A stretch of DNA of 21,607 nucleotides, taken from assembly GCA_964525635.1 (NCBI GenBank), contig CAZGJX010000077.1, forward strand, positions 1 to 21,607, read 5' to 3'. Origin of the DNA: an uncultured archaeon (GTDB taxonomy: Archaea; Asgardarchaeota; Lokiarchaeia; Sigyniarchaeales; SOKP01). The notes under the pieces were generated by a model. It was not told where the DNA came from. It ran no database searches and saw only the letters and a program-made list of their open reading frames with translations. The position numbers and the translations under genes were made by a program. Shown piece by piece: positions 1 through 20,390 of the stretch (within the stretch, counting starts at the first letter, position 1; each line of letters begins with the position of its first letter).

Positions 1-2073
1 TTTTGAAATTATATCATACCCACGAGTAAGAGAGAAGCGAGGGAAATAGGATTTTAAATTATCAATTATTTCTTGAGATTGAATCGTATCTCTGATGGTT
101 AATGATATATGATATTTTGCGAAATGTGTTGTGGGAATTGTGTTAATTAATATAGGTTTAATTAGTGGAGCTTCAATTTGAATATATTTTTCAATTATTT
201 CCTCTATTTTTTCATTTGTTAATTCTTGAATTTTATAGGATTCATACAAATCACTTAATTTTTCTTGTTTTTTAGAATAGATGATTTCTGCTGTATCTTG
301 ATGTTTGGCTATTTTTTTAATAGCTTTAAGACTAAATATTTTTAAATTAAAACAAAACTTTAAGATTGAGGAAAAAAATTCATATTTTTCAATTTCTTTG
401 ATAAATTCTGATTTATCATTAAAATATAATGGTATTAATTTATGAATGAATGTTTTTGTTATTTTTTCTTGAAATATATATTGAGAAAATAATGATATAT
501 CATATTTTTTTAAGAAATTTTGAAAAGAATAAAGATTGTATATTTCTGAATGGTTTGAAATTAGATCTTGAATTTGTTCACCTAATAATATGATATTTTC
601 TAAAAACTCTTTAAGATAAAATGAACTTGAACTCTTAAATAAATCTAATAAATTAAGAAAATGGTCTTTAAGACTTAGATTATTGTGTAAGAATTTAAAC
701 TTTTTTTTAAGATTCTTAATTGAGGCGGCTTGACTAAGGATTTCGTTCATTAAATCAGATTTTAATTGTTTAATTGATTCTCTATTCGGTTCAAATCCAA
801 AACCAGTAATGGAATAATATCTAATTCTATCTAAAATTAAAAAATCTAAAAGAGTTAAGGTAATTGAATCCTTTTTTTTTCCTAAATGATGAGTAAAATT
901 AATTTCATATTGTTTATTATAATTTCTATGATTCTTGTTAATAAAGAGATTCTGATTATGATATTCTCTGAAATAATTTAAGTTCAAATTATTTTCAATA
1001 TAATTACATTCAATACAAGCTATTTGTGTAATATAACCATTTTCTTGGAATTTTAGCAATAATGAAGCAAAATCATTTAAATATGGTTCTGGGAGGATTT
1101 CATATCCTATAATCTGGATTGAAAATCCGTTTTCTGAAATTCTGACATTTTGAAGAAAGGGTAATAGTTCTATTATTTTCCTTACTTTATAGTTTGTGAG
1201 ATTTGGATGGAATTCTAATTTAAGTATATATGGAATTACCCCCATTTGAAAATGATTAATTTTATATGAGGGGGATATATATGTAAAGTTTTTTATCCAT
1301 CGAAAGTTTTGTGTAAATTTCCTTAAACTTAGACCAGTCTCAATTGTACCATCATCCTTAAATTTTGAAAAATATTCCTTATATTCGTAGAGAGCTCGAT
1401 ATGATTTGAGTCGATAAAAAATTTCAATTAAAATTCGGATAGTTTCTATTATATCTTCATCTCTCATTGATTTCGAGGTCTTAAAAATGAATTGGTTAAA
1501 TAAATCATCATAAAAATCAGTAGTATTATCTTCTAAGATATTAAGATTTTTTCTTACATAATTAAAAAAAAAATTAATTGGACCTTCATGATCTTTTGTC
1601 TGGGATTGTAAAAATTTTCCAAGACGATCAAATTGAGCATCTAAAAAGTCATGATCAACTATATTCTCTTTAATTAATTTACTCCATTCGGAATATGTTA
1701 CATGTTTTTTTAGTTTAATTTCAACAATTTGATTAATAAATATTTTAATTGCTTTATTTTCATATATTTCTATAGGTAAGAAACAATAATAGATCTCCCT
1801 CAATAAGATAAAAGGATAAAACTTTTGATATTTAGTAGATAGCTTAAGAGTCAGAGATGCATTTTGATATTGTCGTTGAACACCAAATGAAAAAATATCA
1901 ATATTATTGAATATATCCTTTGTTTTATTGATATATACGTTATCTATTATTGGATCTATATCTAATTTTTCACTAAGTTGTTCTAGTAGAACTTTAAAAA
2001 GATCTTCTAATTTTTCCTCTGTAATATTATTTTCATCCAAGGCCTTTACATATTCGAGGAAAATCTTAGTCAT
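1..2073 (-). CDS. Large hypothetical protein, 3'-truncated by the window edge (>=691 aa); possible degenerate zincin-like N-terminal motif and Lrp/AsnC-like modules
   Basis: Manual translation from ATG at 2073 (MTKIFLEYVKALDENNITEEKLEDLF...KYQKFYPFILLREIYYCFLP...YISPSYKINHFQMG...LTLLDFLILDRIRYYSITGFGFE...YFPRFSLTRGYDIISK) shows no stop in 691 codons down to position 1. Absent from the ORF track, presumably because it has no stop in the window. Confidence 0.93.
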   Translation of the reverse strand, partial: MTKIFLEYVKALDENNITEEKLEDLFKVLLEQLSEKLDIDPIIDNVYINKTKDIFNNIDIFSFGVQRQYQNASLTLKLSTKYQKFYPFILLREIYYCFLPIEIYENKAIKIFINQIVEIKLKKHVTYSEWSKLIKENIVDHDFLDAQFDRLGKFLQSQTKDHEGPINFFFNYVRKNLNILEDNTTDFYDDLFNQFIFKTSKSMRDEDIIETIRILIEIFYRLKSYRALYEYKEYFSKFKDDGTIETGLSLRKFTQNFRWIKNFTYISPSYKINHFQMGVIPYILKLEFHPNLTNYKVRKIIELLPFLQNVRISENGFSIQIIGYEILPEPYLNDFASLLLKFQENGYITQIACIECNYIENNLNLNYFREYHNQNLFINKNHRNYNKQYEINFTHHLGKKKDSITLTLLDFLILDRIRYYSITGFGFEPNRESIKQLKSDLMNEILSQAASIKNLKKKFKFLHNNLSLKDHFLNLLDLFKSSSSFYLKEFLENIILLGEQIQDLISNHSEIYNLYSFQNFLKKYDISLFSQYIFQEKITKTFIHKLIPLYFNDKSEFIKEIEKYEFFSSILKFCFNLKIFSLKAIKKIAKHQDTAEIIYSKKQEKLSDLYESYKIQELTNEKIEEIIEKYIQIEAPLIKPILINTIPTTHFAKYHISLTIRDTIQSQEIIDNLKSYFPRFSLTRGYDIISK

Positions 2074-2312
2074 AAGTGTCTTTAAATTCTTTTTTAAACC
2101 CGTTATTAGAAATAATGAGGTTTTTATAAATATTTAAAATTTTCGTTTCAATATTTCTATTTATATATAAGATGGGAATTTATAAAATTAATAGAGTCAT
2201 TTAATTTTCAAATTGGGATAAATTTAAGATATCAAAAAATTATAAGAGGATTCCTTTTTATTTTTTATTAATGTAAATTTTGAAAGAATTATCTGCAAAA
2301 CTGATAAAAACC

Positions 2313-2642
2313 ATGAAATTAACCATAAAAGAATTATTAGAATTGATTAAGAATATAGATAAAGAGGGAAAGATATATGTTAAAATAATTAAAAATACTA
2401 AAGAAGAACAGTATAATGTAGTAAATTCTTCTCCAAATCCTATTAAGTTAACCCTTAGATTTGAGAAAGATTCAGAAAAAATAATGGAAATTTCGGAATT
2501 ATTTGATACAATTGACCTTTATGATGATAATAGTAATATTGAACTAATACAAACGCAATCAAGTATTTTTATTACGGAAATTTATGATGCAGATGAGGGA
2601 TATTTAATAGATAATGATCTTTACTTCATAGTGAAAAAATAA
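2313..2642 (+). CDS. Small acidic hypothetical protein (~109 aa)
   Basis: The ORF track starts at TTG 2280. ATG 2313 (MKLTIKELLELIKNIDKEGKIYV) is the more plausible start. It fills the gap between flanking genes and has protein-like composition. Confidence 0.7.
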   Translation: MKLTIKELLELIKNIDKEGKIYVKIIKNTKEEQYNVVNSSPNPIKLTLRFEKDSEKIMEISELFDTIDLYDDNSNIELIQTQSSIFITEIYDADEGYLIDNDLYFIVKK

Positions 2643-2710
2643 GAAGATAAATATTATAAAATCAGGATTCTAATAAGATTTTATTATTCATTATTATATT
2701 ATAGAGTATT

Positions 2711-2722
2711 AAAAAAAAAAAA
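2711..2722 (-). terminator. Oligo-T (T12) archaeal-type terminator candidate for ilvE
   Basis: A12 run on the + strand, about 30 nt downstream of the ilvE stop, between convergent genes. Confidence 0.5.
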
Positions 2723-2750
2723 GAAATTTAGTTTTACAAATATAAAATAT

Positions 2751-3785
2751 TTATTCCAATATCTCAACCCAGCCAAATTCATCTTTAATGTCTAATCTTT
2801 GAATACCAATGAGAAGTTTATATAATTTCTTAGTTATATCTCCTGGTTGCTTATTATTGTAGATTTTAGTTTTTCCTTCACATGTAATTGAACCAATTGG
2901 AGTTATAACTGCTGCAGTCCCAGTACAGAAGGTTTCTGTGCAATTTTCTTTAAAAATTTCTTGATATGAAATATTTCTTTCCTCAACTTTCATATTTAAT
3001 TTTTCTCTTGCTAATTCAAGGACAGACTTTAGTGTGATTCCTTCTAGTATTGTTCCATCCATTTTTGGAGTAACAAGTGTATCATCAATTATAGCACAAA
3101 AATTAGCAGCACCAACTTCATTTATATATTTCATATTAATAGAATCTAAATAGATAACTTGATCGTATCCTTGTTTTTTTGCTTCAATTGCAGGTTTCAT
3201 TGTTCCTGCATAATTACCACACATCTTTGAAAATCCTGTACCTCCTTGACTGGAACGGGTATATTTTTTTGAAATTAAAAGTTCGATTCCATTAAATCCA
3301 TTTGAAAAATAAGAGCCAACGGGTGAACAAAAAATTATGACTTTAAACTCCTTCGCTGGACACACTCCAAGCATAGGACCACTTCCAATCATTATTGGTC
3401 TAATATATAAAGATCCACCAGTATTGTAAGGAGGAATAAATTCTTTATTAGATAAAATGACTCTCTTAACTGCCTCAGTATACTTATCTTCGTCAAAACA
3501 AGGCATTGCAATTCTAGAAGCACTCTTATTAAATCTCTTAGCATTTTCAACAGGACGGAATAAAACAATTTTATTATCCTTCGTTTTTAATGCTTTCATT
3601 CCCTCAAAAATTCCTTGGCCATAACTGAAAACATTTGCTGCTGGAGATATTTCTATATTATCAAAAGGAATTAGCTTACCTTCATCCCATTTACTATCTT
3701 TATAGTCTGAGATAAACATAAATTCCGTTTGGGTTAGTTCAAATCCTAAATTATTAAAATCTATATCTAAATTCTTTGATTGCAT
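2751..3785 (-). CDS. ilvE: Branched-chain amino acid aminotransferase (PLP fold IV, bacterial ilvE_II-like type)
   Basis: Motifs YGQGIFEGMKA, LFRP, SLYIRP, GGTGFSK(187)MCGNYA (PLP lysine), EVGAAN, ILEGIT, GTAAVITPIG. Confidence 0.96.
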   Translation of the reverse strand: MQSKNLDIDFNNLGFELTQTEFMFISDYKDSKWDEGKLIPFDNIEISPAANVFSYGQGIFEGMKALKTKDNKIVLFRPVENAKRFNKSASRIAMPCFDEDKYTEAVKRVILSNKEFIPPYNTGGSLYIRPIMIGSGPMLGVCPAKEFKVIIFCSPVGSYFSNGFNGIELLISKKYTRSSQGGTGFSKMCGNYAGTMKPAIEAKKQGYDQVIYLDSINMKYINEVGAANFCAIIDDTLVTPKMDGTILEGITLKSVLELAREKLNMKVEERNISYQEIFKENCTETFCTGTAAVITPIGSITCEGKTKIYNNKQPGDITKKLYKLLIGIQRLDIKDEFGWVEILE

Positions 3786-3840
3786 TTTTTTTCACTTTTT
3801 CTTTTTGAATTTAGACCTTATTATCTAAGTGCTTTTTAAA

Positions 3841-3934
3841 CTGACCCTCTCTAAAACAATTTGATCCCTAAATCAAGATATCATATCCTTAAGAATAAAT
3901 AGAAGAAAAAGTCAGGAAAAGCTATCTTGACTTA
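3841..3934 (-). promoter_or_regulatory. Attenuator-like RNA leader: hairpin + U-tract with alternative 12-bp helices
   Basis: Hairpin AAGUCAAGA/UCCUGACUU (3933-3909) runs into UUUUUCUUCUAUUUAUUCUU. Alternative pairings: 3934-3923 with 3880-3869, and 3915-3904 with 3852-3841. Confidence 0.65.
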
Positions 3935-4018
3935 TAATACTACTACGTTAGCAGCAGCTAGAGCTACAGCTAAATAATTAATAACTATATTTTCCATATT
4001 AGTATTATTTAAGGTCAT
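3932..4018 (-). CDS. Putative ilvE leader peptide MTLNNTNMENIVINYLAVALAAANVVVL (28 aa; alternative start 3997, 21 aa)
   Basis: ATG 4018 to TAA 3932, co-oriented with ilvE and ending 146 nt upstream of it. The last 18 codons contain 10 Ile/Leu/Val and 5 Ala, ending GTA GTA GTA TTA TAA. Confidence 0.75.
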   Translation of the reverse strand: MTLNNTNMENIVINYLAVALAAANVVVL

Positions 4019-4040
4019 TAAAAAAAGAAATTAATTTAAT

Positions 4041-4048
4041 TATTTAAG
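4041..4048 (-). promoter_or_regulatory. Candidate TATA box for the leader-ilvE transcript
   Basis: CTTAAATA ends about 22 nt upstream of leader ATG 4018, compatible with a near-leaderless start. The AT-rich background limits specificity. Confidence 0.35.
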
Positions 4049-4180
4049 ATTTATGTTCTTTTTGGTGTTTTTAGTGGGAAAATAAACCCAAATATATCAG
4101 AATTATTGAGAATATTACTATATGTAGATTTTGGTAAGTAACTTATTTTTTATATAAATTTATAAATTTAAAGAAATAAT

Positions 4181-4193
4181 GGGAATTTAAAAA
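4181..4193 (+). promoter_or_regulatory. Candidate BRE/TATA promoter of TPR-longin gene 1
   Basis: GGGAA-TTTAAAAA, with the TATA element starting 38 nt before ATG 4224. An equivalent element lies at the same spacing before the paralog. Confidence 0.5.
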
Positions 4194-4223
4194 TACTATT
4201 TATCTTATATATATTTAGCTAAT

Positions 4224-6416
4224 ATGCCTGATGATAAAAAAATCTCACAAGTAAATGAATATATATCTCATGGGAAATTTCAGTCTGCTTTAGAGACTAT
4301 AAAACTAATCGAAGAAGAGAGGAAATTATCTGATGATGAATCTTTAATAAAGAAATATGCAAGAATTTTTCTTTATCTTGATAAAGGTAAGTTTCAACTA
4401 GGAAGAACCCTTGCTGATGAAATGATTAAAGAATCAAGGAAACAAAATAATATTTTAAGGGAAATAGATGCATTCATTGGAAAGATTGAAAATACAATTT
4501 GTTTAGGAGTAATTGAAAAGTCCTTAGATTTAATTAAGAGAGGAAAGACAGTTTTAGAGAAATTTCAGGATAAAAATAGTCGAGAATTCATAAGAAGAAA
4601 AGCGTATTTAAAATTTTTAAAGGGACGTGTTTTTGCTGAGAAAACAGAAATGCATAAATCCATAAAACTAATCGAAGATAGTTATTATCTTAGGAAGGAA
4701 ATTAATGATAAATATGGAATGTTATGGTCTTTATTAAATTCTGGTTCATTAATAATGTCCATTGGAGAGTTCCAAAAAGGTAAAGAATACTTAGAAAAAA
4801 GTTTGAGAATAGCAGAAGAACTTAATTGTGAAGTTGGAATTGTATGGGCTTCAATCCATTTAGGAGGTATTGAATATCAACTTAGCAATTTAGATGTCGC
4901 AATGTCATATGCAGAAAGATGTCTTTTAATTACCGAAAAACAAGAATATAAACACTCAAGTTCTAGTTGTTATGATATTATTGGACATTGTCTAAATAAA
5001 AAAGGAAAGTTAGATAAAGCTCTATATTATTTCCAAAAAAGTTTGGTAAATAGAATAGAGTCAGGTTATAAATATTTAATCGCACAATCCTTTTATACAA
5101 TTGGAAATATTTATATTCAGAAAGGTCAACTTAAAGAAGCTTTAGATTATTTTAATCAAATATTAGAAATGCCAGAGGTTCAAGAAGACGACGTTTCTAA
5201 ACCAGCATATCTCACAACAATTGGAAGAATACATGGAGAACTCGGAGATTTCTCTACCGCAAAAAAATATTTAACACAAGCAATTGAACTATTAAAAAAT
5301 AAAGAAGGATATATATTTCATTATCAAAATTTTTCTTTATCAATAACGACAACTCTTCATGGTTTAATTGTTATTTTAGCAGAAGGTAAAGAATTTAATA
5401 TGGTTGATTTTTATTTAGAGGAATTATATAAATTAAGCCAAAAATATCCTGAAATAAAACAATTTGAACAATTATATCGATTAGATAAAGCAATTGTTTT
5501 AAAATCAAGTGATCGATTAATGGATAAGATGGAAGCTGGAGCAATTCTTAAAAGAATTACAGAAGAAGATATTATTGATTATGAAATAACTACCGAAGCA
5601 ATGACAAATTTATGTGAGGTGTTAATTAATGAATTAGAATTAACTGGCGATAACAAGATTTTTCATGAAATAGTATCACTTTCAGATATATTACTTGTAA
5701 TTGCACAACATCAAAATTTATTTGATTTATTAGCAAAAACATATTTCTTTAAGGCTAAAATTTCACTACTACAATTAAATATTAATAATGCAAGATTATT
5801 ATTAATAAAAGGTCAAAACACTGCATATAAACATGGATTAAAACGATTAGCAAATAAAATATCAAATGAACACGATTCTCTATTAGAAAATTTAGATAAA
5901 TGGGAAGAGAGGAAAAAGAATAAAATTTCTTTGCAAGAAAGAATAAATGAATCCAGAAATGAATTATTATTCTCTAAAATGGTTAGGTCTAGAATATCAG
6001 ATAGTATAATAGAAAGAGATACTTCAATTTATCTGGTAATTCTAAGTAGCGAAAAAGGAGATAGTATATATAGCAAAGCATTCGAAGAAATTAAAATTGA
6101 TGATAATCTTATAGCAGGTTTTATTTCAGCTATTAACATGTTTGGAAAAGAAGCATTTTCTTCTTCAGGATCGATTGATCGGATAAAACATGGAGAATAT
6201 CTAATAATTCTCCATTCTCATAAGGAGCTTATATTTGGATATGTGTTTAAGGGTCAATCCTATTCAGCAATAACTAAATTAGAAAATTTAATTGAAGAAT
6301 TATCAAACTCAGAGAAATTAATTAATTCTTTAAAATGGGCAATTAGAGGTTACACAGAAATTCCTGATGATATTCACAATCAGATAGATATGTTAGTTGA
6401 ACAAATTTTCTTATAA
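4224..6416 (+). CDS. Tetratricopeptide-repeat protein with C-terminal longin-like domain (paralog 1)
   Basis: Repeated TPR patterns (e.g. YDIIGHCLNKKGKLDKALYYFQKSL, FYTIGNIYIQKGQLKEALDYFNQIL). The C-terminus YLVILSSEKGDSIYSKAF...NLIAGFISAINMFGKEAF...IDRIKHGEYLIILH...FGYVF has the beta-beta-alpha-beta-beta-beta-alpha pattern of longin domains. Confidence 0.85.
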   Translation: MPDDKKISQVNEYISHGKFQSALETIKLIEEERKLSDDESLIKKYARIFLYLDKGKFQLGRTLADEMIKESRKQNNILREIDAFIGKIENTICLGVIEKSLDLIKRGKTVLEKFQDKNSREFIRRKAYLKFLKGRVFAEKTEMHKSIKLIEDSYYLRKEINDKYGMLWSLLNSGSLIMSIGEFQKGKEYLEKSLRIAEELNCEVGIVWASIHLGGIEYQLSNLDVAMSYAERCLLITEKQEYKHSSSSCYDIIGHCLNKKGKLDKALYYFQKSLVNRIESGYKYLIAQSFYTIGNIYIQKGQLKEALDYFNQILEMPEVQEDDVSKPAYLTTIGRIHGELGDFSTAKKYLTQAIELLKNKEGYIFHYQNFSLSITTTLHGLIVILAEGKEFNMVDFYLEELYKLSQKYPEIKQFEQLYRLDKAIVLKSSDRLMDKMEAGAILKRITEEDIIDYEITTEAMTNLCEVLINELELTGDNKIFHEIVSLSDILLVIAQHQNLFDLLAKTYFFKAKISLLQLNINNARLLLIKGQNTAYKHGLKRLANKISNEHDSLLENLDKWEERKKNKISLQERINESRNELLFSKMVRSRISDSIIERDTSIYLVILSSEKGDSIYSKAFEEIKIDDNLIAGFISAINMFGKEAFSSSGSIDRIKHGEYLIILHSHKELIFGYVFKGQSYSAITKLENLIEELSNSEKLINSLKWAIRGYTEIPDDIHNQIDMLVEQIFL

Positions 6417-6588
6417 TAAGCTTAGAAAGAATATCTTTAGAAAAAGAGATATGGTTAAATAGCTATTTCTGTAAAATATATTAGATTTAACATTTTTTAA
6501 AGATTAAATAATTGATTTTTTTTTTTCAAAAATATTAGAAAGTAAAGTTATTATAAATTTGAATTTATATAGTTTATAGAATAATAAA

Positions 6589-6601
6589 GTGAATTTATAA
6601 T
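6589..6601 (+). promoter_or_regulatory. Candidate BRE/TATA promoter of TPR-longin gene 2
   Basis: GTGAA-TTTATAAT, with the TATA element starting 37 nt before ATG 6631, mirroring the element at 4181-4193. Confidence 0.5.
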
Positions 6602-6630
6602 ATATTTTATGTTTTGTACGATACTAAAAA

Positions 6631-8832
6631 ATGTCAGAAAAACGAAATTTACAATTTAATGAATTCTTATCACAAGGAAAATATGTAAAAGCTTTGCAAC
6701 AACTAAATCTAATTAAGAAAAAAAGATCTTTATCTGAGGATGAAATTTTAGTCAAAAAATATATTCAAATTTTTATACATCTCGATAAAGGTGAATTTCA
6801 AAAAGGACGAAGTCTTGCTGAAGAATTGATCAAGGATTCGAAGAAAAAAAAGAATGTGATACGAGAGATTGACGGAATAATCGGGAAAACTGAAAATACT
6901 ATTTGTTTAGGATTATTTGATGAAGCAATGGAATCAATTAAAAAAGGAATTACTCTATTAAAAAAAATTGAAAATAAAGATAATAACCTTTACTTAGAAA
7001 GAAAAGCTTATTTAATATTTCTAAAGGGTCGTGCTTTTGCTGAAAAATTTAAGATGTTTGAGGCAATTAAATCATTTCAAAAAAGCTATGAACTTAGAAA
7101 ACAAGCTGATAATAAATATGGTATGTTATGGTCCTTATTGAATTGGGGATCTTTAGCAATGGGCGTAGGTAAATTTAGGGAAGGTGAAAATTACTTAGAA
7201 AAAAGCCTTAAAATTGCTGAAGAACTAGATTGTGAAGTTGGAATTATATGGAACTTAATTAATTTAGGAGGAATTGAATATCAACTTAGAAATTTAGATA
7301 AAGCAATATCATATGCAGAAAGATGTCTTTCAATTTCAGAACCGAGAGATTATAAACATTCAAGTTCAATGTGTTATGATATTATGGGTCATTGTCTATT
7401 TAAAAAAGGATTTCTTGATAAAGCATTAGTGTATTTTCAAAAAAGTCTAGAGAAGAGATTAGAAACAGGTTATAAAAATTTAATAGCACAGTCTTATTAT
7501 AGCATTGGAAATATATATACTCAGAAAGGTGAACTTAAAGATGGTTTAGCTTATTATGAAAAAATATTAAAAATGCCTGAAGTTAAAGAAGATAATGTTT
7601 CTAAACCTGCATATTTAACTACAATTGGAAAAATATATGGAGAACTAGGAGATTTTCATACCGCAAAAAAATATTTAATAGAAGCATTTGAACTATTAAA
7701 CAATAATGAACAATATCTATTTCATTATCTAAATTTTAGTGTATCAATAATAAAAACTCTTCATTATATAATAGTTCTTTTGGTTGAAAATAATGAATGT
7801 AAGGACATAGAGTATTACCTTGATGAATTATATAAATTAAGCCAAAAATATCCAGAAATGAGACAATATGAAATGATGTATCGTTTGGATAAAGCAATTG
7901 TATTAAAATCAAGCAGTCGATTAATGGATAAGATGAAAGCAGGAACAGTTCTTAAAAAAATCACCAAGGAAGATATTATTGATCATGAAATAACTATCGA
8001 AGCAATGACAAATTTATGTGAAGTATTAATAAATGAATTAGAATTAACAGGAGATACAACAATTATTCAAGAAATTGTAATTCTTTCTGATAAATTACTT
8101 GAAATTGCACAATCTCAATATTTTTATGATTTATTAGCAGAAACATACTTCTTTAAAGCAAAAATATCATTACTACAATTAGATATTAATAATACGCGAT
8201 TATTTTTAATGAAAGCTCAAAATACCGCAAATGACCATGGATTAAAACGACTAGCAAATAAAATATCAAATGAACATGACTCATTATTAGAAAACTTAAA
8301 TGATTTAGAAGAAAAAATTAAAAAAAATACACCTTTACAACAAAGAATAAATGAATCAAGAAATGATTTTTTATTCTCTAAAATGGTTAGGTCTAAAATA
8401 TCTGATCAAGTAAGAGTTATAGATACTCCAATATATCTAGTTATATTAAATAGTAACAAAGGAGATTGTATTTACAGTAAAGCATTCGAAGAAATTAAAA
8501 TTGATGAAAATCTTATAGCAGGTTTTATTTCAGCTATTAATATGTTTGGAAAAGAAGCATTCTCTTCTTCAGGATCTATTGATCGTATAAAGCACGGTGA
8601 ATATATGATAATTCTACATTCTTATAAAGAATTTATATTTGGATATGTGTTTAAAGGGCAATCCTATCCAGCCTTATCTAAATTAGAAAGTCTTATCGAA
8701 CAATTATCACAATCCAAGGAATTAATTAAGTCTTTAGATTATTCAATTCACAGTTATATGGAAATTTCTGATGAAACACAATTGGAAATAGATACTCTGA
8801 TCGACCAAATTTTTTCTTATAAAAGTAAATAG
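6631..8832 (+). CDS. Tetratricopeptide-repeat protein with C-terminal longin-like domain (paralog 2)
   Basis: Colinear along its full length with 4224..6416, with long identical blocks (VSKPAYLTTIG, EAMTNLCEVLINELELTGD, HGLKRLANKISNEHDSLLENL, NLIAGFISAINMFGKEAFSSSGSIDRIKHGEY). Confidence 0.85.
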   Translation: MSEKRNLQFNEFLSQGKYVKALQQLNLIKKKRSLSEDEILVKKYIQIFIHLDKGEFQKGRSLAEELIKDSKKKKNVIREIDGIIGKTENTICLGLFDEAMESIKKGITLLKKIENKDNNLYLERKAYLIFLKGRAFAEKFKMFEAIKSFQKSYELRKQADNKYGMLWSLLNWGSLAMGVGKFREGENYLEKSLKIAEELDCEVGIIWNLINLGGIEYQLRNLDKAISYAERCLSISEPRDYKHSSSMCYDIMGHCLFKKGFLDKALVYFQKSLEKRLETGYKNLIAQSYYSIGNIYTQKGELKDGLAYYEKILKMPEVKEDNVSKPAYLTTIGKIYGELGDFHTAKKYLIEAFELLNNNEQYLFHYLNFSVSIIKTLHYIIVLLVENNECKDIEYYLDELYKLSQKYPEMRQYEMMYRLDKAIVLKSSSRLMDKMKAGTVLKKITKEDIIDHEITIEAMTNLCEVLINELELTGDTTIIQEIVILSDKLLEIAQSQYFYDLLAETYFFKAKISLLQLDINNTRLFLMKAQNTANDHGLKRLANKISNEHDSLLENLNDLEEKIKKNTPLQQRINESRNDFLFSKMVRSKISDQVRVIDTPIYLVILNSNKGDCIYSKAFEEIKIDENLIAGFISAINMFGKEAFSSSGSIDRIKHGEYMIILHSYKEFIFGYVFKGQSYPALSKLESLIEQLSQSKELIKSLDYSIHSYMEISDETQLEIDTLIDQIFSYKSK

Positions 8833-8955
8833 AAATATATTTACAACAAACCTACATTATATAGATTGGGTGTTTTTACAATTTTATAGCAATTTTAATA
8901 ATTGAATATAGAATTAAATTGAATAGATCCTAAAATAAGGGTAGGTTTCAACTAT

Positions 8956-9213
8956 ATGGAAATTAAGTCCTGTTCTGATTATTTTCACATCTGTAATGAA
9001 TTCATCAAAAATAGTATTAGACAAGATGAAATGAGATTGAATGAAAGTTTTTGCAGGATAGAAAAAATATCAATTAATAAATTTAAAATACAATTTCAGT
9101 CAAATTTATTGAAAAAATCCTTTAAAAATTTGTTGAAAGTAATGTTTAATGAAATGGGTTTCGATGTGAATATTATTAAGAAATATAGAACTCTTGAAAT
9201 TTCAATAAGTTAA
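8956..9213 (+). CDS. Small hypothetical protein (85 aa)
   Basis: ATG-started ORF with no overlap, co-oriented with its neighbours, with an amphipathic helix/strand pattern. Confidence 0.6.
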   Translation: MEIKSCSDYFHICNEFIKNSIRQDEMRLNESFCRIEKISINKFKIQFQSNLLKKSFKNLLKVMFNEMGFDVNIIKKYRTLEISIS

Positions 9214-9553
9214 ATTTATCTATCCTTAATAAGAAGATTTTAATATTTTCAATAGTATTAATTAAAGTTCTTGTAAATTCTAAGTTTATAATTATGAGAT
9301 TATTATCATCAACAACTAATCATCTAATTATATTTTCAAAAACAATTATTTGTAGAGATACAATATAAATTTCAGTTTTTATTATAAATGTTTTTTAATA
9401 TTGAGAAATTAAGTGATATAAATTGAATATTTATACTAAGAATTTAGCATAGAAAATTAAAAATAAATAAATTTAATTACATATTATTATATTTATCCAA
9501 ATATATCATCAAAATCTTTTCGATTTATTATCCTTTTGTATAGAGCTTTACCA

Positions 9554-12310
9554 ATGAATAAAAATAAATTTAAGCAACATTTTATCATAATTTTTTTAAT
9601 TCTTTTTATATCAATTAATATTTATATCATACAGAGCAATAATATTTCAAGTGATATTGATAAGAATAATAGAGAAGCTTTACCCATTAACTTAAAGAGT
9701 TCTTTATATAATTATACAACAACAGAAGTAGTGTCATCTGAAAGTACTGAAGCTTCTCTGTGGCCTTCCATTGCTATAGATTCTTTAGGAAATATACATG
9801 TCGTATGGGCAGATAAAACGAATTATACAGGATGTAGTGAAATATCTGATGATTTTGATATATTTTATAAACAGTGGAATAATAGTTTAAAAGATTGGAC
9901 GAATACTGAGGTGGTCTCTACTGAGAGTACAAGTGATTCACTTTATCCTTCAATTGCCATTGATAGTTTAAATAATATTCATATAGCTTGGAATGATAAT
10001 ACAAATTATACTGGATGTAAAAGTGTAGGGGAAGATTATGATATATTTTATAAGGTGTGGAATAGTACTATAAAAAATTGGACGAATACTGAGGTGGTCT
10101 CTTCTGAAAGTACAAATAGTTCAGAAATCCCTTCAATTGCTATTGATAGTTTAAATAATATTCATATAGCTTGGGAAGATAAAACAAATTATACTGGATG
10201 TAAAAGTGTAGGGGAAGATTATGATATATTTTATAAACAGTGGAATAGTACTATAAAAGATTGGACGAATACAGAGGTAGTCTCTACTGAGAGTACTGAT
10301 TATTCTACTTGTCCTTCAATTGCTATAGATTCTTTAGGAAATATACATGTAGCATGGTATGACCAAACAAATTATTCTGCATGTAAAAGTGCAGGGGAAG
10401 ATTATGATATATTTTATAAACAGTGGAATAATACTATAAAAGATTGGACGAATACAGAGGTGGTCTCTACTGAAAGTTATAAAAATTCTTATAATCCCTC
10501 AATTACTACTAATGTGCTAGGAAATGTACATATAACTTGGGAAGATATAACGCCCCTAAATAGTTCTGGAGATGAATCTGATATATTTTATAAACAGTGG
10601 AATAATACTATAAAAGATTGGACGATTACTGAGGTAGTCTCTACTGAGAGTACTGATTATTCTACTTGTCCTTCAATTGCTATAGATTCTTTAGGAAATA
10701 TACATATAGCATGGTATGACCAAACAAATTATTCTGCATGTAAAAGTGCAGGGGAGAATTATGATATTTTTTATAAACAATGGAATAATACTATAAAAGA
10801 TTGGACATTGACAGATATAATATCTACTGAAAGTGATGCAGAATCATCTTGGCCTAAAATTGCTATAGATGGTTCAAATAATGTTCATGTAGTATGGAAT
10901 GATAGAACAGATTATAATGGATGTAAAAACTCAGTAAGTGATTTTTATGATATATTTTATAAATGTAGAATTACTCATAATATACCTTCTGTGAATTATC
11001 CAACTGATATTGAAACAACCAAGTTTGGGACCGAGACTATTGATTGGATCATCACTGATGATGTAGGAGCAGGAATGTATCGTGTTTTTATAAATGATAT
11101 AATTCTTGAGAGAGATTGGACTCCATGGGACAATAATACTATTATTCATATGCCAATTAATCGTAATTCTCCAGGAACATTTTACTATACAATTGAATAT
11201 TATGATACCTTTAAAGTATATGGAATTAATGACACTGTGACAGTTGTAATAGAAGATGGTAATCCGATAATTAATCATCCTATTGATCATAAAATAGAAA
11301 AAGGTCAATCATTAGTAATTGAATGGATTATTACTGATGATTTTGGTGACGGGTTTTACAGAATCTTTTTAAATGATATTTCTAGCGGCTGGGATACCTG
11401 GGAAAGTGATGCAACAATACAATATTCTTTAAAGACTTCTGTTATTGGTGTGTTTAATATTACTATTCAATATCAAACCTCTACAGGACAAATAGGATAT
11501 GATACAGTAATGGTTGAAATTACTCCTTCAGGAATACAAATATTTTTTGATTTCTTGCCATATCTTATTGTTATAATCAGTTCTATATTAGTAATAGCAT
11601 CTTCTGTTATTATACTAAAAAGAAGAAAACATAAACAAATAGTAATGTGGAAAGAAAAGACGAAAATATTTTCTGATATTTTAAATATTGACTTAATCTT
11701 AATTATTCATAAAGAAACTGGTTCTGCAATAGTCTCACATAATTTTAGTGAACAAACTATGGATGGAGATCTTATAGGTGGATTTCTACAAGCTATGACT
11801 TCTTTTAAATATGAAATTAAAAAATTCGATACAACTCAAACTTCGAAAGGCTCAACTTTATTGGATTATGAACATTATAAAATCCTTATTAAGGATGGGG
11901 AGTTTATTCGCGTTGCTATAATATTAAATTCAGATCCATCAAATCTCCTAGAAAATGCATTTTATGGCTTTATTGAAGAATTTGAAACAAGATTTAATAC
12001 CGAATTAAAACAATTTCATGGTAAAATCACAACATTTCAAAATTCCATAGATTTGATCAACAAATATTTCAATATCTCTCTAATTTATCCTCACTGTACT
12101 AGTAAAAAGGCATCGTTAAAAGAATTGAACTCCTTTCAAGAATATATAATAAAAATGGCAAAGAACTTAGAAAGTAAAACAGGAATGTTTCATATGAGTC
12201 AATTGATAAATTATATAATAGCTGATAAACCAAATGAACTAAAAGAGAAAATAATCGCGAATATTATTGATTTAAGACAACTTGGATTTCTAGAATTAGC
12301 TAATCCTTAA
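9554..12310 (+). CDS. Membrane-anchored surface protein: N-terminal signal/anchor, 7-repeat beta-propeller, two Ig-like domains, TM helix, cytoplasmic longin-like domain plus helical (wHTH-like) tail
   Basis: ATG 9554 is preferred over TTG 9536. Hydrophobic HFIIIFLILFISINIYII; seven PSIAIDSLxNIHxAW...DIFYK repeats; two P..P.D...I.WIITDD.G.G.YR.F.ND units; TM FLPYLIVIISSILVIASSVIIL followed by KRRKHK; LILIIHKETGSAIVS...DGDLIGGFLQAMTSF longin-like segment; many N-x-S/T sequons in the ectodomain. Confidence 0.85.
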   Translation: MNKNKFKQHFIIIFLILFISINIYIIQSNNISSDIDKNNREALPINLKSSLYNYTTTEVVSSESTEASLWPSIAIDSLGNIHVVWADKTNYTGCSEISDDFDIFYKQWNNSLKDWTNTEVVSTESTSDSLYPSIAIDSLNNIHIAWNDNTNYTGCKSVGEDYDIFYKVWNSTIKNWTNTEVVSSESTNSSEIPSIAIDSLNNIHIAWEDKTNYTGCKSVGEDYDIFYKQWNSTIKDWTNTEVVSTESTDYSTCPSIAIDSLGNIHVAWYDQTNYSACKSAGEDYDIFYKQWNNTIKDWTNTEVVSTESYKNSYNPSITTNVLGNVHITWEDITPLNSSGDESDIFYKQWNNTIKDWTITEVVSTESTDYSTCPSIAIDSLGNIHIAWYDQTNYSACKSAGENYDIFYKQWNNTIKDWTLTDIISTESDAESSWPKIAIDGSNNVHVVWNDRTDYNGCKNSVSDFYDIFYKCRITHNIPSVNYPTDIETTKFGTETIDWIITDDVGAGMYRVFINDIILERDWTPWDNNTIIHMPINRNSPGTFYYTIEYYDTFKVYGINDTVTVVIEDGNPIINHPIDHKIEKGQSLVIEWIITDDFGDGFYRIFLNDISSGWDTWESDATIQYSLKTSVIGVFNITIQYQTSTGQIGYDTVMVEITPSGIQIFFDFLPYLIVIISSILVIASSVIILKRRKHKQIVMWKEKTKIFSDILNIDLILIIHKETGSAIVSHNFSEQTMDGDLIGGFLQAMTSFKYEIKKFDTTQTSKGSTLLDYEHYKILIKDGEFIRVAIILNSDPSNLLENAFYGFIEEFETRFNTELKQFHGKITTFQNSIDLINKYFNISLIYPHCTSKKASLKELNSFQEYIIKMAKNLESKTGMFHMSQLINYIIADKPNELKEKIIANIIDLRQLGFLELANP
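9722..10966 (+). repeat. Seven intragenic tandem repeats of 183 nt (61 aa; unit 5 is 174 nt, unit 7 partial)
   Basis: Units start at 9722, 9905, 10088, 10271, 10454, 10628 and 10811. Units 4 and 6, and units 2 and 3, are near-identical at DNA level. Confidence 0.95.
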
Positions 12311-12388: not shown

Positions 12389-15300
12389 TTACCAATAAAT
12401 CTCTTTTAAAGTTTCATGGTATTCATTTAGAGATTTTACTGATATTTCTCTTGTTCTTACTTTTTCTATTGCATTTACAAGTGCTTCTGCTAACTGTAAA
12501 TCGATTATAACGGGTATATTATAATCAACTGCCATTCTTCTAATTTGATATTCATCTTCTATTATTTGACGGAATTTCTTTTCTATGGTAGTTGGTAAAG
12601 GTATGTTAATGACCATATTAATATTTCCAGTTTGAAGACATTCTTTGATATTAGGTTCCATTCCACGTTCACTAACTTTATACAATCTAACAGCTGGAAT
12701 TCCATTTTTTTTAAGAGATTCTGCTGTATGTTTTGTGGAAAAAATCGTAAATCCTAAATTTATTAATTTTTTAGCAATTGGTATGATTTGTTCTTTTAAT
12801 TTATCACCACCAACAGAGATTAATACATTACCACCTTCAATAGGAATAAATTGTTCTGCGGCTTCAAGAGCTTTCATTAAAGCGCTTGGTAGATCTTCAC
12901 TAATTACAGCAACTTCACCAGTACTATTCATTTCTACTGAGAGGATTGGGTCTGCATTATCCAATCTCATAAAAGAAAACATAGGAGATTTAACAGCAAC
13001 AAAATCACCATAGGGTAAATTTAATAATCTTTCGGGTATTTTTTGTCCCATAACAACTTCTGCAGCTAATTTCATTAAATTAATACCACGCGTTTTAGAT
13101 ACATAAGGCATACTTCTACTAGAACGTAAATTACATTCTATAACAAATACTTCTCCATTTTTAACTAAATATTGAATATTAAATGGTCCTTGAATCTTCA
13201 ATGCTAAAGCTATATCTTTTGTATATTTTTCAATTGTCTGAATAACTTCATTTGAAACGGTTTGAGGTGGAATTGACATTGTAGCATCACCAGAATGAAC
13301 ACCTGCATTTTCAATATGTTCTACTACTGCACCAATAAGTACTTTTTCACCATCACATATTCCATCACATTCTAATTCTCGTGAATCTGTGAAGAATTTT
13401 GTTATTACTACAGGATACTCTTGGGAGACTGCTGCTGCTAAATCCAATGTATCTATCAATGTTTTTTCATTATAAGAAACTCTCATAGCCGCACCACTTA
13501 ACACATAAGAAGGTCTTACAAGAACAGGATAACCAACTTTATTGGCAAAATGAAGTGCTTCATCCTTTTTTATTAATATACTCCATTCAGGTTGTTTTAT
13601 ATTCAATTGATCTAATAAATTACTAAATTTTGAGCGATCTTCTGCCATATCAACCCGTGAACCATGAGTACCTAAAATATTTATACCAGCTTTACGATAA
13701 AATTCGGAATATTTAGAAAATTTAGCAGCAAGATTTTGAGCTATTTGTCCACCTGCATTTAAAACAATTCCATAAGATTTTTCGAGCTCACAAATATCTA
13801 AAACTCTTTCCCCAGATAATTCTTCGAAATATAATCTATCAACTAAATCATAATCTGTTGAAACCGTTTCAGGATTATAATTAATCATTATTGCTTTGTC
13901 TATTCCTAATTTTTGAAGCCCCCATAAACAATTAACACTTCCCCAATCAAATTCACAACTACTTCCAATTCTATAAGTTCCACATCCTAAAACAATAACT
14001 TTTTTTAAATTATCCCTTTCTTCTTGTTTATAGTCAATATCATGTTTATTTCCCCAATAGGTTAAATATAAATATTGCCTTTTAGGGACGCATTGTCCTG
14101 CTAATGTATCAATCTGTTTTACATATGGTAAAATATTATATCTTTTACGTAATCTCCTTATAGTAGGAGTGTCAACACCAATTATTTTTGCTATTTGCCC
14201 ATCTGAAAATCCATATCTTTTAGCTTTTCTGAATAAATATTGTTTTTCATCATCATTTGATTTTAGAAAATCTAATTCTTTAATATCTTTTTCAATATCT
14301 ATTATATTTTTTAATTTATAAAGAAACCACTTGTCTATTTTTGATCTTTCATAAATTACATCAATAGAGATTCCTCGCTTAATTGCCTCTCCTATTCTCA
14401 AGAATCTTAAATCTGTAGGATTTCTTAATTCATATTTTAATTCATTAATATCTTCTATAGGTTCAAGGTTATTTCCAACAAAACCTTTTAAACCAATATC
14501 TAACATACGGATAGCTTTCTGACATACTTCTTCAAAGCTTCGCCCAATACTCATACATTCCCCAACGCCTTTCATTTGAGGGCCTATACGTCGATCTACT
14601 CTTTCAAATTTTGTTAAATCCCACCGAGGATATTTCAGAACCATATAATCAGTTGCAGGTTCAAAATTAGCGGTAGTTTTAAGTGTAATTTGGTTTAATA
14701 ACTCAGGTAATTTATATCCAATTGCAATTTTAGCGGCTATATAAGCTAATGGATATCCAGTTGCTTTTGAAGCCAAAGCTGATGATCTTGATAATCTTGC
14801 GTTTATTTCAATAGCTCTAAATTTTTTGCTAAAAGGATCTAATGCCCATTGTATATTACATTCTCCACATACACCTACACCTTTAGTTGCTCGGATTGAA
14901 GCAGATCTTAACATTTGAAGTTCTTCATCAGTTAGAGTTTGAGCAGGAGCTACCACTATAGAATCACCAGTATGTATACCACATGGATCTACATTCTCCA
15001 TACTACAATTAATAAAACAATTATCATCCGCATCTCTAAGTATTTCAAATTCAATTTCCTTCCAACCCCAAACACTTTCCTCAATTAAAATCTGGTTAAT
15101 ACGTGATTGTGCCAATCCTCGTTTAGCTAATCTTTCAAATTGATCCCAATTATTAATAAAAGCAGAACCTCTACCCCCTAACACATATCCAACTCTAAGC
15201 ATTATTGGAAATCCGATTTCTTTAGCAGCTTTTACAGCATCTTTATAGTTATTAACGGCAACACTCTTACAAACAGGGCAATTTGCTTCATTCATAGCTT

Positions 15301-15700
15301 TAACAAATAATTCTCTATCCTCTGTAGCTTCAATTGCTTTAATAGGTGTTCCGCATACCTTAACGTTATATTTTTCCAGAATTCCTGCTTCATATAGCTC
15401 TACACCTACATTAAGTCCTGTTTGTCCTCCGAAGGCTAGACAAATTCCATCAGGTCGTTCTTTTTTAATAATTTCCTCAACATATTTAATTGTGATAGGC
15501 TCTAAATATACCCTGTAGGACATTTGAGGATCTGTTTGGATTGTTGCTATATTAGGATTAATTAAAATCGTCTTAATTCCTTCCTCATTCAATGCTTTTA
15601 AAACTTGGCTTCCACTGTAATCAAATTCTCCAGCTTGACCTATTCTTACAGCACCAGATCCTAAAATTACTACTTTTTTTAAAGTTTTGTCCAATGGCAT
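12389..15700 (-). CDS. carB: Carbamoyl-phosphate synthase large subunit, divergent copy
   Basis: GSGAVRIGQAGEFDYSGSQ, LGGRGS, GIHTGDS, IEINARLSRSSALASKATGYP, RPSYVLSGAAM, AGVHSGDA, VIECNLRSSRS, C-terminal MGS-like domain. Confidence 0.96.
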   Translation of the reverse strand: MPLDKTLKKVVILGSGAVRIGQAGEFDYSGSQVLKALNEEGIKTILINPNIATIQTDPQMSYRVYLEPITIKYVEEIIKKERPDGICLAFGGQTGLNVGVELYEAGILEKYNVKVCGTPIKAIEATEDRELFVKAMNEANCPVCKSVAVNNYKDAVKAAKEIGFPIMLRVGYVLGGRGSAFINNWDQFERLAKRGLAQSRINQILIEESVWGWKEIEFEILRDADDNCFINCSMENVDPCGIHTGDSIVVAPAQTLTDEELQMLRSASIRATKGVGVCGECNIQWALDPFSKKFRAIEINARLSRSSALASKATGYPLAYIAAKIAIGYKLPELLNQITLKTTANFEPATDYMVLKYPRWDLTKFERVDRRIGPQMKGVGECMSIGRSFEEVCQKAIRMLDIGLKGFVGNNLEPIEDINELKYELRNPTDLRFLRIGEAIKRGISIDVIYERSKIDKWFLYKLKNIIDIEKDIKELDFLKSNDDEKQYLFRKAKRYGFSDGQIAKIIGVDTPTIRRLRKRYNILPYVKQIDTLAGQCVPKRQYLYLTYWGNKHDIDYKQEERDNLKKVIVLGCGTYRIGSSCEFDWGSVNCLWGLQKLGIDKAIMINYNPETVSTDYDLVDRLYFEELSGERVLDICELEKSYGIVLNAGGQIAQNLAAKFSKYSEFYRKAGINILGTHGSRVDMAEDRSKFSNLLDQLNIKQPEWSILIKKDEALHFANKVGYPVLVRPSYVLSGAAMRVSYNEKTLIDTLDLAAAVSQEYPVVITKFFTDSRELECDGICDGEKVLIGAVVEHIENAGVHSGDATMSIPPQTVSNEVIQTIEKYTKDIALALKIQGPFNIQYLVKNGEVFVIECNLRSSRSMPYVSKTRGINLMKLAAEVVMGQKIPERLLNLPYGDFVAVKSPMFSFMRLDNADPILSVEMNSTGEVAVISEDLPSALMKALEAAEQFIPIEGGNVLISVGGDKLKEQIIPIAKKLINLGFTIFSTKHTAESLKKNGIPAVRLYKVSERGMEPNIKECLQTGNINMVINIPLPTTIEKKFRQIIEDEYQIRRMAVDYNIPVIIDLQLAEALVNAIEKVRTREISVKSLNEYHETLKEIYW

Positions 15701-15704
15701 CGAG

Positions 15705-16838
15705 TTATACCTCCATTAATTTTATAAATTTGTTAAAAATGATATCTCTCATATCTAATGCTCCAGGAGAGGCATCTGGATTGAATGCTACAGAAAATAT
15801 TGGTTTAGATTCATGATAAAGCCCCTCATTGGTTTTATCATCTTTATCATGATATAATTCCTTAAAACCATTCTTTTCAAAATTTTTTAAACAATAACCA
15901 TGATTCTGAAAAGTAATATAGCAATGATTGCTAGCATTATCTACAGTTGTTCGACCACCTCTATGCTCAGAAATCATTCTACAGCATTCACCCCCAGCAG
16001 CAAGTCCTATAATCATATTTCCTAAGCCAATTCCAATTGTTGGGATATTATTATTGATTAATTCTTTGACAAACTGTATTTGTTCTATTAATAAATTGGG
16101 ATTCCCTGGACCATTTGATAATAATACTCCATTAAGTTCTAATTCTTTTAAATTTCTATAGGGATACGTATGGGGAATCAAAATTACGTTAAATCCTTTA
16201 TTTAATAAAATCCTTAAAATATTATTTTTTATTCCAAGATCTAAGACTGCTACTGTTCCCTTTGGGTCAGAAATCATAAATTTTTTAATCTCTTTAGTAG
16301 AAACTCTTGAAATTATCTCCTTATTAAGAGGATCCTCAATAACTTTCACATCTTCTTTTAATTGTTCAATATTAGGTTTTTGACCAATATCAAAGACTTG
16401 AACCAATCCTAATTGAGATCCTTTTTCAACAATCCTTTGAGTTAACATTCTAGTATCAATCCATTGAATGCCAGGGATATCTTCTTGAATAAGCCAATCC
16501 TCTAATGACATTATACTTTCATAATGACTTGGTTTTTTACAATATTCATTAACTATAATTCCCTTTAATTTGATGGAATCTGATTCAAAATGTTTAGGAA
16601 TTCCATATTTATCTATTATCTTATCTGGTACACCATAGTTTCCTATTAGAGGATACGTGAAAATGATAATTTGATCTTTATATGTACTATCTGTAAGTAC
16701 TTCTATATAACCTGATCCCGGAACTGTTGAAAATGTTATTTCACCAGTGACTTTTTTAGGAGCTCCTATTCCTATACCTTCAAAATAAGTCCCATCTTGT
16801 AACATCAAGATAGCTGGCTTCTCAGTTTTGTAAATCAT
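15705..16838 (-). CDS. carA: Carbamoyl-phosphate synthase small subunit, glutaminase-inactive variant
   Basis: CarA motifs (TYPLIGNYG, IDTRMLT, LSNGPGNP, QNHGY), but GIGLGNM replaces GICLGxQ and FNPD replaces FHPE. Confidence 0.93.
   Translation of the reverse strand: MIYKTEKPAILMLQDGTYFEGIGIGAPKKVTGEITFSTVPGSGYIEVLTDSTYKDQIIIFTYPLIGNYGVPDKIIDKYGIPKHFESDSIKLKGIIVNEYCKKPSHYESIMSLEDWLIQEDIPGIQWIDTRMLTQRIVEKGSQLGLVQVFDIGQKPNIEQLKEDVKVIEDPLNKEIISRVSTKEIKKFMISDPKGTVAVLDLGIKNNILRILLNKGFNVILIPHTYPYRNLKELELNGVLLSNGPGNPNLLIEQIQFVKELINNNIPTIGIGLGNMIIGLAAGGECCRMISEHRGGRTTVDNASNHCYITFQNHGYCLKNFEKNGFKELYHDKDDKTNEGLYHESKPIFSVAFNPDASPGALDMRDIIFNKFIKLMEV
15709..15714 (-). promoter_or_regulatory. Shine-Dalgarno GGAGGT for carB, embedded in the end of carA
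   Basis: ATGGAGGTATAACTCGATG, 8 nt before ATG 15700. The equivalent GGAGA at 20400-20396 precedes the other carB. Confidence 0.65.
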
Positions 16839-17060
16839 GGTAATTATTATTTTCTTTTTTTTTTTATATAATAAATATAGCTAATTAAACTATTTTATTT
16901 AATATAATAATCATTCAATAATATTATTAAAATGAAAGAAGTAAATGAAGAGTTACCTCTGTTTAAAAATAAAAAATTTTCTTTTTAGTAAATAATTCAT
17001 CAATTATTCTCATTTAACTAATCCAGTTTTAAACTTTAATTAGAATTATTTGATAATACT

Positions 17061-17066
17061 AAAAAA
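17061..17066 (-). terminator. Oligo-T terminator candidate after the canonical carAB operon
   Basis: TAA-CCTCAGGA-TTTTTT directly after the carB stop at 17075. Confidence 0.4.
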
Positions 17067-17074
17067 TCCTGAGG

Positions 17075-20000: not shown

Positions 20001-20389
20001 TTCCTATCTTCAGTAGCCTGAATTGCTTCAATTGGAGTCCCCAAAACACGAATATTATATTTATCTAAAATGCCTTCTTCAGCAAGTTCTACTCCAACAT
20101 TAAGTGCAGTTTGACCTCCAAATGCTAATAAAATTCCATCTGGTCGTTCCTTCGCAATAATTTTTTCAACATACTTCACATTAATAGGTAAAAGATATAC
20201 TCTATCGGATAATTCGGGATCAGTTTGAATTGTAGCGATATTTGGATTAATAAGAATTGTTTCAATACCTTCTTCCTTTAAGGCTTTAAGAACTTGAGAG
20301 CCAGAATAATCAAATTCTCCTGCTTGACCAATTCGAATACCTCCTGAACCCAAAACTAAAGCTTTTTTAATTGTCTTATCTAAGGGCAT
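17075..20389 (-). CDS. carB: Carbamoyl-phosphate synthase large subunit, canonical copy (1104 aa)
   Basis: Same motifs as the other copy, plus the canonical IDTLAAEWP and TTACFEPALDY. Start reassigned from 20422 to ATG 20389 (MPLDKT, matching the paralog; SD upstream; removes the overlap with carA). Confidence 0.96.
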   Translation of the reverse strand: MPLDKTIKKALVLGSGGIRIGQAGEFDYSGSQVLKALKEEGIETILINPNIATIQTDPELSDRVYLLPINVKYVEKIIAKERPDGILLAFGGQTALNVGVELAEEGILDKYNIRVLGTPIEAIQATEDRNLFVQAMDASKAPVCRSKAVTSYKEAIKAANEFGFPLMIRVAYTLGGRGSGIANNINEFEKMARRGLAQSRIHQILIEESVWGWKEIEYEVVRDAADNCFINCNMENFDPCGIHTGESIVVAPSQTLTNEEYHMLRSASIRVIRNLGIIGECNIQYALDPRSKEFRVIEVNARLSRSSALASKATGYPLAYIAAKLAIGYNLPELKNKITGITTACFEPALDYLVLKIPRWDMTKFQRVDRHISSQMKSVGEVMAIGRTFEEVLQKAIRMLDIGMKGVVANNLDPIEDLNELKYQLKNPTDLRVFRIVEAIKRGISIDEIYRLSRVDKWFLYKINNIIEIEEQLSKINFLEEDDDIKHYLFERAKRFGFSDGQIAKIISIDAITTRRILKRKYQIKPFVKRIDTLAAEWPAITNYLYLTYAASEHDIDFQRENQENLRKFIVLGSGTYRIGASVEFDWGSVNCLWGLKNLGVDQAIMINYNPETLSTDYDICDKLYFEELSGERVLDICELEKAEGVVVSVGGQIAQNLAAKFSKYNEFFRKTNINILGTHGSRIDIAEDRSKFSYLLDQLNIRQPQWATLTTEKDALKFAEKVSYPVLVRPSYVLSGAAMRVSYDEKTLKDTLDLAASISTQYPVVITKFFTNAREIEADGVCDGTDVFIGAIIEHIENAGIHSGDANMVIPPQTISNEVIQIIEKYTKEIALALKIRGPFNVQYLIKDKEVFVIECNLRSSRSMPYVSKTRGINLMRLAAEVFLGKKISEKLLNLPYGNYVSVKTPMFSFARLDKADPVLGVEMASTGEVACIGDDFSDALVKALEATEQKIPLSGGNVLISVGGEELKKQVIPLALKLKELGFTIFATEDTAAVLRENGIYAVRLYKVHEYGQEPNIIGCLQNAAIDLVVNIPQATTIKEKFRTIIEDEYKIRRIAVDYNIPVIINLEFAKALINAIENIRRKEPSIKSLNEYHETLEEIYW

Positions 20390-20390
20390 C

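Follow-up and report, generated by a model that had tools for sequence, protein, structure and literature searches.

Before one of the ilvE paralogs of an Asgard archaeon lies a short, alanine-rich reading frame which, judged by comparison across relatives, is almost certainly a conserved cis-element that would be translated. The codons of this leader, and those of its relatives before other genes, make it very probable that it senses tRNA charging. The whole model has a slightly better than even chance of being right: a tRNA-charging switch, answering chiefly to tRNA-Ala and possibly to tRNA-Val, would control transcription into ilvE paralog A, with the stalling of the ribosome, the termination factor, the direction of the response and the role of the enzyme all presumed.

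The window, by which we mean the whole stretch of 21,607 nucleotides that was analysed, comes from a 100%-complete genome of 4.45 Mb with 27% GC. The sequence-only reading had left the taxonomy of the contig to be confirmed, and it is archaeal, since a tree groups the ilvE of the window with sequences of Promethearchaeota and away from those of bacteria, and since aCPSF1/FttA, a homolog of the eukaryotic CPSF73 nuclease, is encoded in the genome (TIGR03675 match, 876 bits, over the cut-off). The gene behind the leader is a branched-chain aminotransferase, as had been stated; it is of type II, encodes 344 aa (2751..3785, minus strand), scores above the TIGR01123 and PRK13357 cut-offs and has its ATG 146 nt beyond the leader stop. 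The host genome holds two ilvE paralogs, A with the leader and B without. Divergent from the leader, on the plus strand (window 4224-8832), stand two tandem TPR proteins of about 730 aa with a longin/roadblock-like C-terminus, which we take to be typical of Lokiarchaeia. On the minus strand, window 12389-21524 encodes what the translations, judged by eye, show to be two carA-carB-like pairs in tandem, one of 377 + 1115 aa and the other of 377 + 1103 aa.

The leader reading frame and its conservation

The leader ORF of 28 codons (3932..4018, minus strand) translates into 28 aa with the composition and codons first described, and its last 18 codons do hold 10 branched-chain residues (5 Val, 3 Leu, 2 Ile) and 5 Ala. 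The three tandem GTA codons are also present, standing directly before the final Leu codon. The repetitive codon use holds for this copy, in which every Ala codon is GCT and four of the five Val codons are GTA, but is not conserved, as the homologs use all four Ala codons. No other of the 16,082 ORFs in the host genome that start with ATG and encode 20-45 aa has at least 9 Ala plus Val in its last 15 codons. A TATA-like box (4040..4047, minus strand) lies about 30 nt before the uORF ATG, a distance that nearly all homologs share; transcription would accordingly start at that ATG and the transcript would be leaderless. Some 60-70 nt upstream of the uORF there is a palindrome, GGGW-N6-WCCC (4076..4089), a candidate transcription-factor site that recurs at the same position in most ilvE-leader loci and at two other loci of the host genome. 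Genome-wide enrichment of the palindrome was looked for in the host genome and none was found, and NrpR was ruled out as its binder, being not found in that genome.

The leader precedes the same ilvE paralog in 17 genomes, namely this one and 16 relatives, which belong to five genera of one Promethearchaeota family. Eleven of these loci came from a first search, one from a pattern search, and five were held out and located by protein homology alone; the leader was present in all five of the latter, and was absent from the paralog-B loci examined, including seven in the same held-out test. The leader-bearing ilvE copies form a single clade with a support of 99/99, and every member of it carries the leader. 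The expectation of a conserved uORF before ilvE orthologs is thus borne out, with the frame kept and a TATA box in front. Beyond these loci, a sequence profile of the region after the stop was run over 151 genomes of the class and matched strongly nowhere outside this family, while among the 80 matches listed in a metagenome pattern scan all were due to chance and none combined region 3 (described below) with an Ala/Val uORF.

The homologs are 26-37 codons long, their length changes are all multiples of three, and every indel among them preserves the frame. GC dinucleotides fall in codon positions 1-2 in 87 of 91 cases, the other two frames are closed by 2-8 stops (mean about 4), and the Ala codons vary synonymously. 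RNA structure alone would not fix the codon phase; comparison of frame, phase and synonymous codons across the 17 genomes shows, at the level of sequence, a uORF under selection as a reading frame. The same evidence bears on the idea of an RNA-only element, a riboswitch or protein-binding leader in which the ORF would be incidental. Such an element would gain from the pairing constraints on the ATG segment and the terminal codons and from the self-complementarity of GCN repeats; the codon phase, the frame-keeping indels and the closed frames speak against it, as does Rfam, which gave no covariance-model match at E<=5 in window 1-9600, T-box and riboswitches included. We consider it most improbable.

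Alternative folds and the proposed switch

The leader region folds with a z of -4.2 and contains five recurrent helices (PA, 1:4a, 1:5, 2a:3 and the long 2:4), each with two-sided changes or better pairing with its own partner, although permutation p-values for the helices overstate their significance, as kin are not independent. Region 1 is the start-codon segment (4010..4018), which pairs with 4a or with 5, shows two-sided changes in three columns for 1:4 and five for 1:5, and for which its own partner is better than those of homologs. The helix PA is internal to the uORF; its 5' arm (4000..4008, codons 4-7) is supported by covariation and own-partner pairing. Just 3' of the stop, region 2a (3923..3931) pairs with 3 or with 4c and covaries, its seven core columns being paired in 13 of 13 leaders with two-sided changes in five columns. 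It is followed by region 2b (3902..3922), a U-rich segment with two U4 runs that pairs with region 4 and is the candidate aCPSF1/FttA site; no other U-rich segment is conserved, and one or more U4 runs occur in it in all of the 13 leaders counted, two or more in 7 of them. Region 3 (3872..3880) is the partner of 2a, as pairing and covariation counts indicate, and region 4a (3841..3852), which covaries, pairs with region 1 or with 2b. Region 4b/c (3823..3837) extends the long 2:4 helix, as its own-partner duplex energy indicates, and region 5 (3814..3820) is the second partner of region 1 by covariation and folding. All of these lie on the minus strand.

The mean 2:4 duplex reaches -22.8 kcal/mol with the own partner, -16.6 with the partners of homologs and -10.5 with shuffles, and these helices are also kept in 23 sibling leaders that are less closely related. 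The helices were counted on motif anchors, since indels misalign the other arms in a MAFFT alignment, on which RNAalifold recovered the 2a:3 core only. Comparison thus shows two predicted, mutually exclusive folds: state Y, made of PA, 1:4a and 2a:3 with the U-tract looped, and state X, made of 2:4 and 1:5 with the U-tract paired. The alternative RNA structures implied by the first proposal are therefore found, 2a:3 excluding 2:4 and 1:4a excluding 1:5, with covariation. The hairpin that overlaps the stop, with a U-tract after it, is likewise present in the window (-6.1 kcal/mol); as a conserved terminator it fails, being confined to the four genomes of this genus, and was rejected. A scan for a conserved intrinsic terminator of hairpin and U-run found none, with no conserved U-run after 2a:3 or 2:4. 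An anti-Shine-Dalgarno model, which looked good by eye in four loci, failed permutation and shuffle tests.

In the proposed switch, plentiful Ala-tRNA would let the ribosome run through the leader and leave, upon which PA would refold and region 1 would capture 4a. In the resulting state Y the U-tract would be open, and aCPSF1/FttA would cleave there and terminate transcription (OFF). When Ala-tRNA is scarce, a ribosome lingering on the Ala codons would melt PA and prevent region 1 from reaching 4a, possibly aided by another ribosome waiting at the start codon. Region 4 would then pair over the U-tract, the RNA polymerase would read through (ON), and region 5 would later lock region 1 and with it state X.

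Folding of partial transcripts at the emergence of 4a gave Y with a free 5' end and X with a blocked one: blocking raised 2b:4 from 1.8 to 6.9 bp and lowered 2a:3 from 6.1 to 1.5 bp. The unpaired fraction of the U-tract changed modestly, from 0.66 to 0.48, and this counts against the model, as do further results. A ribosome on the Ala codons alone produced no flip in equilibrium folding, and the flip appeared only with the 5' end occupied or with a ribosome at the last codons or the stop; this folding model ignores the bulk of the ribosome, which on the Ala codons would physically melt PA, the helix placing region 1 beside 4a. With a spacer of about 12-20 codons, and with ribosome footprints of 27 nt as in Haloferax (PMC7261190), another ribosome would fit on the start codon. 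Once region 4c has been made, state X dominates in folding regardless of the ribosome, and the switch must therefore be kinetic. It is known that aCPSF1 responds to U-tracts, that the Loki ortholog discriminates U4 tracts, and that the U-tracts known to serve aCPSF1 are no more than about 30 nt away from the 3' end (PMC8716108); the decision point here would fall about 70 nt beyond that spacing. Some sibling leaders also have no U4 run at all, which counts against termination on the U-tract.

In a related explanation the same codon-reading leader would act on mRNA stability, by post-transcriptional cleavage through aCPSF1 or an RNase, or on the translation of ilvE. Such an output would suit the long distance between the U-tract and the point where region 4 emerges, the strong covariation of fold X at full length and the lack of an intrinsic terminator. 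Pairing of regions 2b, 1 and 3 with the ribosome-binding region of ilvE, however, is not stronger than their pairing with shuffled or foreign partners, the accessibility of that region hardly changes (0.63-0.77), and a gap of 146-180 nt excludes simple termination-reinitiation. We regard an output on stability or translation as unlikely.

Codon content, sibling leaders and the role of paralog A

Compared with the proteome, the last 12 codons are enriched 10x in Ala and 5.5x in Val, with Leu at 1.2x and Ile at 0.9x. Positions -14 to -4 of 16 homologs hold 50% Ala, 16% Ile and 12% Val, in a proteome with 4% Ala; in the window the Ala-rich control codons are codons 17-23 (3950..3970, minus strand). 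The terminal Val-Val-Val-Leu codons (3934..3946, minus strand) are shared with leaders of other specificities. The last three leader codons are nearly always GTA or TTA and form the 3' arm of PA (3934-3942), which pairs with codons 4-7, so they are at least partly structural. On these codon counts, the signal specific to ilvE is Ala, not Ile or Leu, with Val weaker. The sequence-only reading had the leader respond to branched-chain amino acids and perhaps also to Ala; its Ala component stands, together with some Val, whereas Ile and Leu are at background, and the terminal Val codons, which lie in a conserved helix and recur in every sibling leader, do not support a signal specific to branched-chain amino acids.

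The same scaffold stands before leuS at three loci of the bacterial type and three of the archaeal type, with 62% Leu codons, before an acyl-CoA dehydrogenase/ETF operon at three loci, with 53% Val codons, and before an uncharacterised ORF of 45-68 aa at 24 loci, with Val/Leu codons. The Ala share is 43% before ilvE versus 0-3% in the leaders of these other targets, and the control codons in siblings are cognate to the regulated gene, as with Leu before leuS. By this comparison the codon content of a leader follows its downstream gene, which is the main argument for the sensing of tRNA charging. In an unbiased, independent host-genome scan for TATA-led uORFs rich in a single residue, the Leu-leuA, Ala-ilvE and Ile-cimA pairs were in the top seven of 843. 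The Leu-rich leader before leuA (L237, G000 C3:89524-89619) and the Ile-rich leader before cimA (L240, C20:47003-46950) have RNA folds other than the ilvE scaffold.

Codon content also bears on whether the peptide itself could be functional, either as a small hydrophobic membrane peptide or as an arrest peptide sensing a free ligand, of the TnaC or fungal AAP type. In 10 of 14 peptides the best Kyte-Doolittle mean over 19 residues is above 1.6, and the leaders on the ilvE scaffold are all aliphatic, as such a peptide would have it. Composition alone is kept, however, several homologs having the tract broken by charged or Pro residues; helices 1 and PA of the RNA account for the few fixed residues, and the content changes with the downstream gene. 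A functional peptide is very improbable.

Several further copies were seen. A second full leader in the host genome (L069:1417-1503; G000 C6:12104-12190, plus strand) has few Ala codons and carries a compensatory change in helix 1:5; behind it come an ORF of 30 codons and an ABCB-type exporter, and the copy may be decaying or re-tuned. A shortened third copy (G000 C6:9158, minus strand) has the same palindrome, TATA box and first nine codons, then unrelated sequence, and precedes a membrane protein that is DMT/EamA-like by eye. L280 (G007 C178:13776-13870) is an Ala-rich remnant without regions 4-5 and without a downstream gene, and a copy with Ala, Phe and Val codons (L082:724-831, minus strand, genome G069) precedes a group II PLP-dependent decarboxylase. 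The LeuRS of the host genome (G000 C1:50227-51525) is of the bacterial type and has no leader; close relatives have one. The conserved 45-68 aa protein lies with a strong Shine-Dalgarno sequence behind Val/Leu leaders (L275:435-569, L283:1297-1452, L308:547-750 and about 20 more); it had no NCBIfam or Atlas match and no tblastn homolog in the host genome, and its sequence context makes it a candidate small regulator.

As for the enzyme, ilvB (acetolactate synthase), ilvC and ilvD were searched for in the complete host genome and not found, and ilvD was not found in any of the four genomes of this genus or in the four searched genomes of genus g6. It follows that ilvE would not be the last step of de novo Val/Ile synthesis in the host. 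In an active-site comparison of the paralogs, paralog A departs at fixed positions, having lost the Arg of the GITR motif and replaced Phe230 with Cys; these changes fit a functional divergence and do not name a substrate. The archaeal alanine dehydrogenase family was not found in the five leader-bearing genomes searched, the host genome giving only a weak match below the cut-off. To our knowledge, Ala is not among the textbook products of IlvE, which counts against the Ala-sensing model. Most likely, paralog A would replenish Ala, or interconvert Val and keto acids, from imported branched-chain amino acids. In genus g6, Val-rich leaders (L294, L295, L297) precede acyl-CoA dehydrogenase and ETF; together with the Ile-leader cimA and the Leu-leader leuA of the host genome they hint, speculatively, at Val/Ile synthesis by reversed degradation, through acyl-CoA reduction and reductive carboxylation.

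The targets and the missing genes could also be read in the opposite direction, with X favoured once the leader has been fully translated, or while a ribosome waits at its stop, and amino-acid plenty turning a catabolic ilvE ON. The absence of ilvB/C/D from the finds in the host genome, sibling targets such as the acyl-CoA dehydrogenase/ETF, PLP decarboxylase and ABC exporter genes, and the loss of 2a:3 and gain in 2b:4 when folding is modelled with the ribosome on the stop are all in keeping with that logic. Against it, the same scaffold stands before leuS, where induction by excess Leu is implausible, and the leuA and cimA leaders of the host genome precede biosynthetic genes; we judge the inverted logic quite improbable. 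The direction of the starvation-ON model is taken from the leuS siblings, since a leuS leader makes sense only as starvation-ON.

Relation to known leaders and significance

Leader-peptide attenuation is a textbook mechanism of bacteria, and tnaC and mgtL are examples of leaders that depend on Rho. The ilvL (ilvGMEDA), ivbL (ilvBN) and corynebacterial ilvBNC attenuators (PMC11857589) likewise combine a short ORF, aliphatic control codons and a branched-chain gene with exclusive helices overlapping the ORF end. The archaeal leader differs from them in being TATA-led, apparently leaderless and Ala-specific, with its start codon as the switch strand (1:4a or 1:5), in having no conserved GC-rich terminator hairpin with U-run and no Rfam match, and in its target, a stand-alone ilvE paralog whose genome yielded no ilvBCD when searched. 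As the intrinsic-terminator test failed, it is not filed as a classical attenuator.

The leader appears closer in logic to Rho-dependent leaders such as that of Salmonella corA, which works by Rho-dependent attenuation (PMC13675443). In corA, tnaC and mgtL, as may be the case here, exclusive folds hide or expose a pyrimidine-rich termination-factor site under leader translation. The archaeal candidate factor would, however, be the nuclease aCPSF1/FttA on a U-tract instead of Rho on a C-rich rut site, and sensing would be by hungry codons instead of a peptide-bound ligand. The leader of pheM-pheST, representing the type found in aminoacyl-tRNA synthetase operons, likewise has cognate codons, as the siblings have Leu before leuS, on a different RNA scaffold and in a different domain of life. 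Within the archaea, Xie and Reeve reportedly proposed in 2005 that Trp codon 2 of Methanothermobacter trpY is a read-out of tRNA charging; that is a single codon in a repressor gene, with no leader ORF and no RNA switch. A literature search covering few subscription papers found no archaeal leader-peptide attenuator, and this type of control, familiar elsewhere, seems undescribed in the archaea.

Our fullest claim is tentative, and we place it a little short of an even chance: a portable leader-peptide scaffold of Asgards, re-coded for each gene (Leu, Val, Ala), would link the charging of tRNA to aCPSF1/FttA-dependent termination; a leaderless uORF would supply the switch strand with its start codon, and the ilvE copy would be an Ala-specific attenuator. 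The element is 200 nt long with defined helices and swappable codons, and the aCPSF1 of Loki works in Methanococcus (PMC8716108), which makes both the coupling and regulated aCPSF1 termination directly testable. For uncultured Asgards, leader codons offer a clue to gene function, Val for the acyl-CoA dehydrogenase/ETF operon and Ala for ilvE paralog A; if the model is true, the leader would mark paralog A as an Ala-supplying enzyme.
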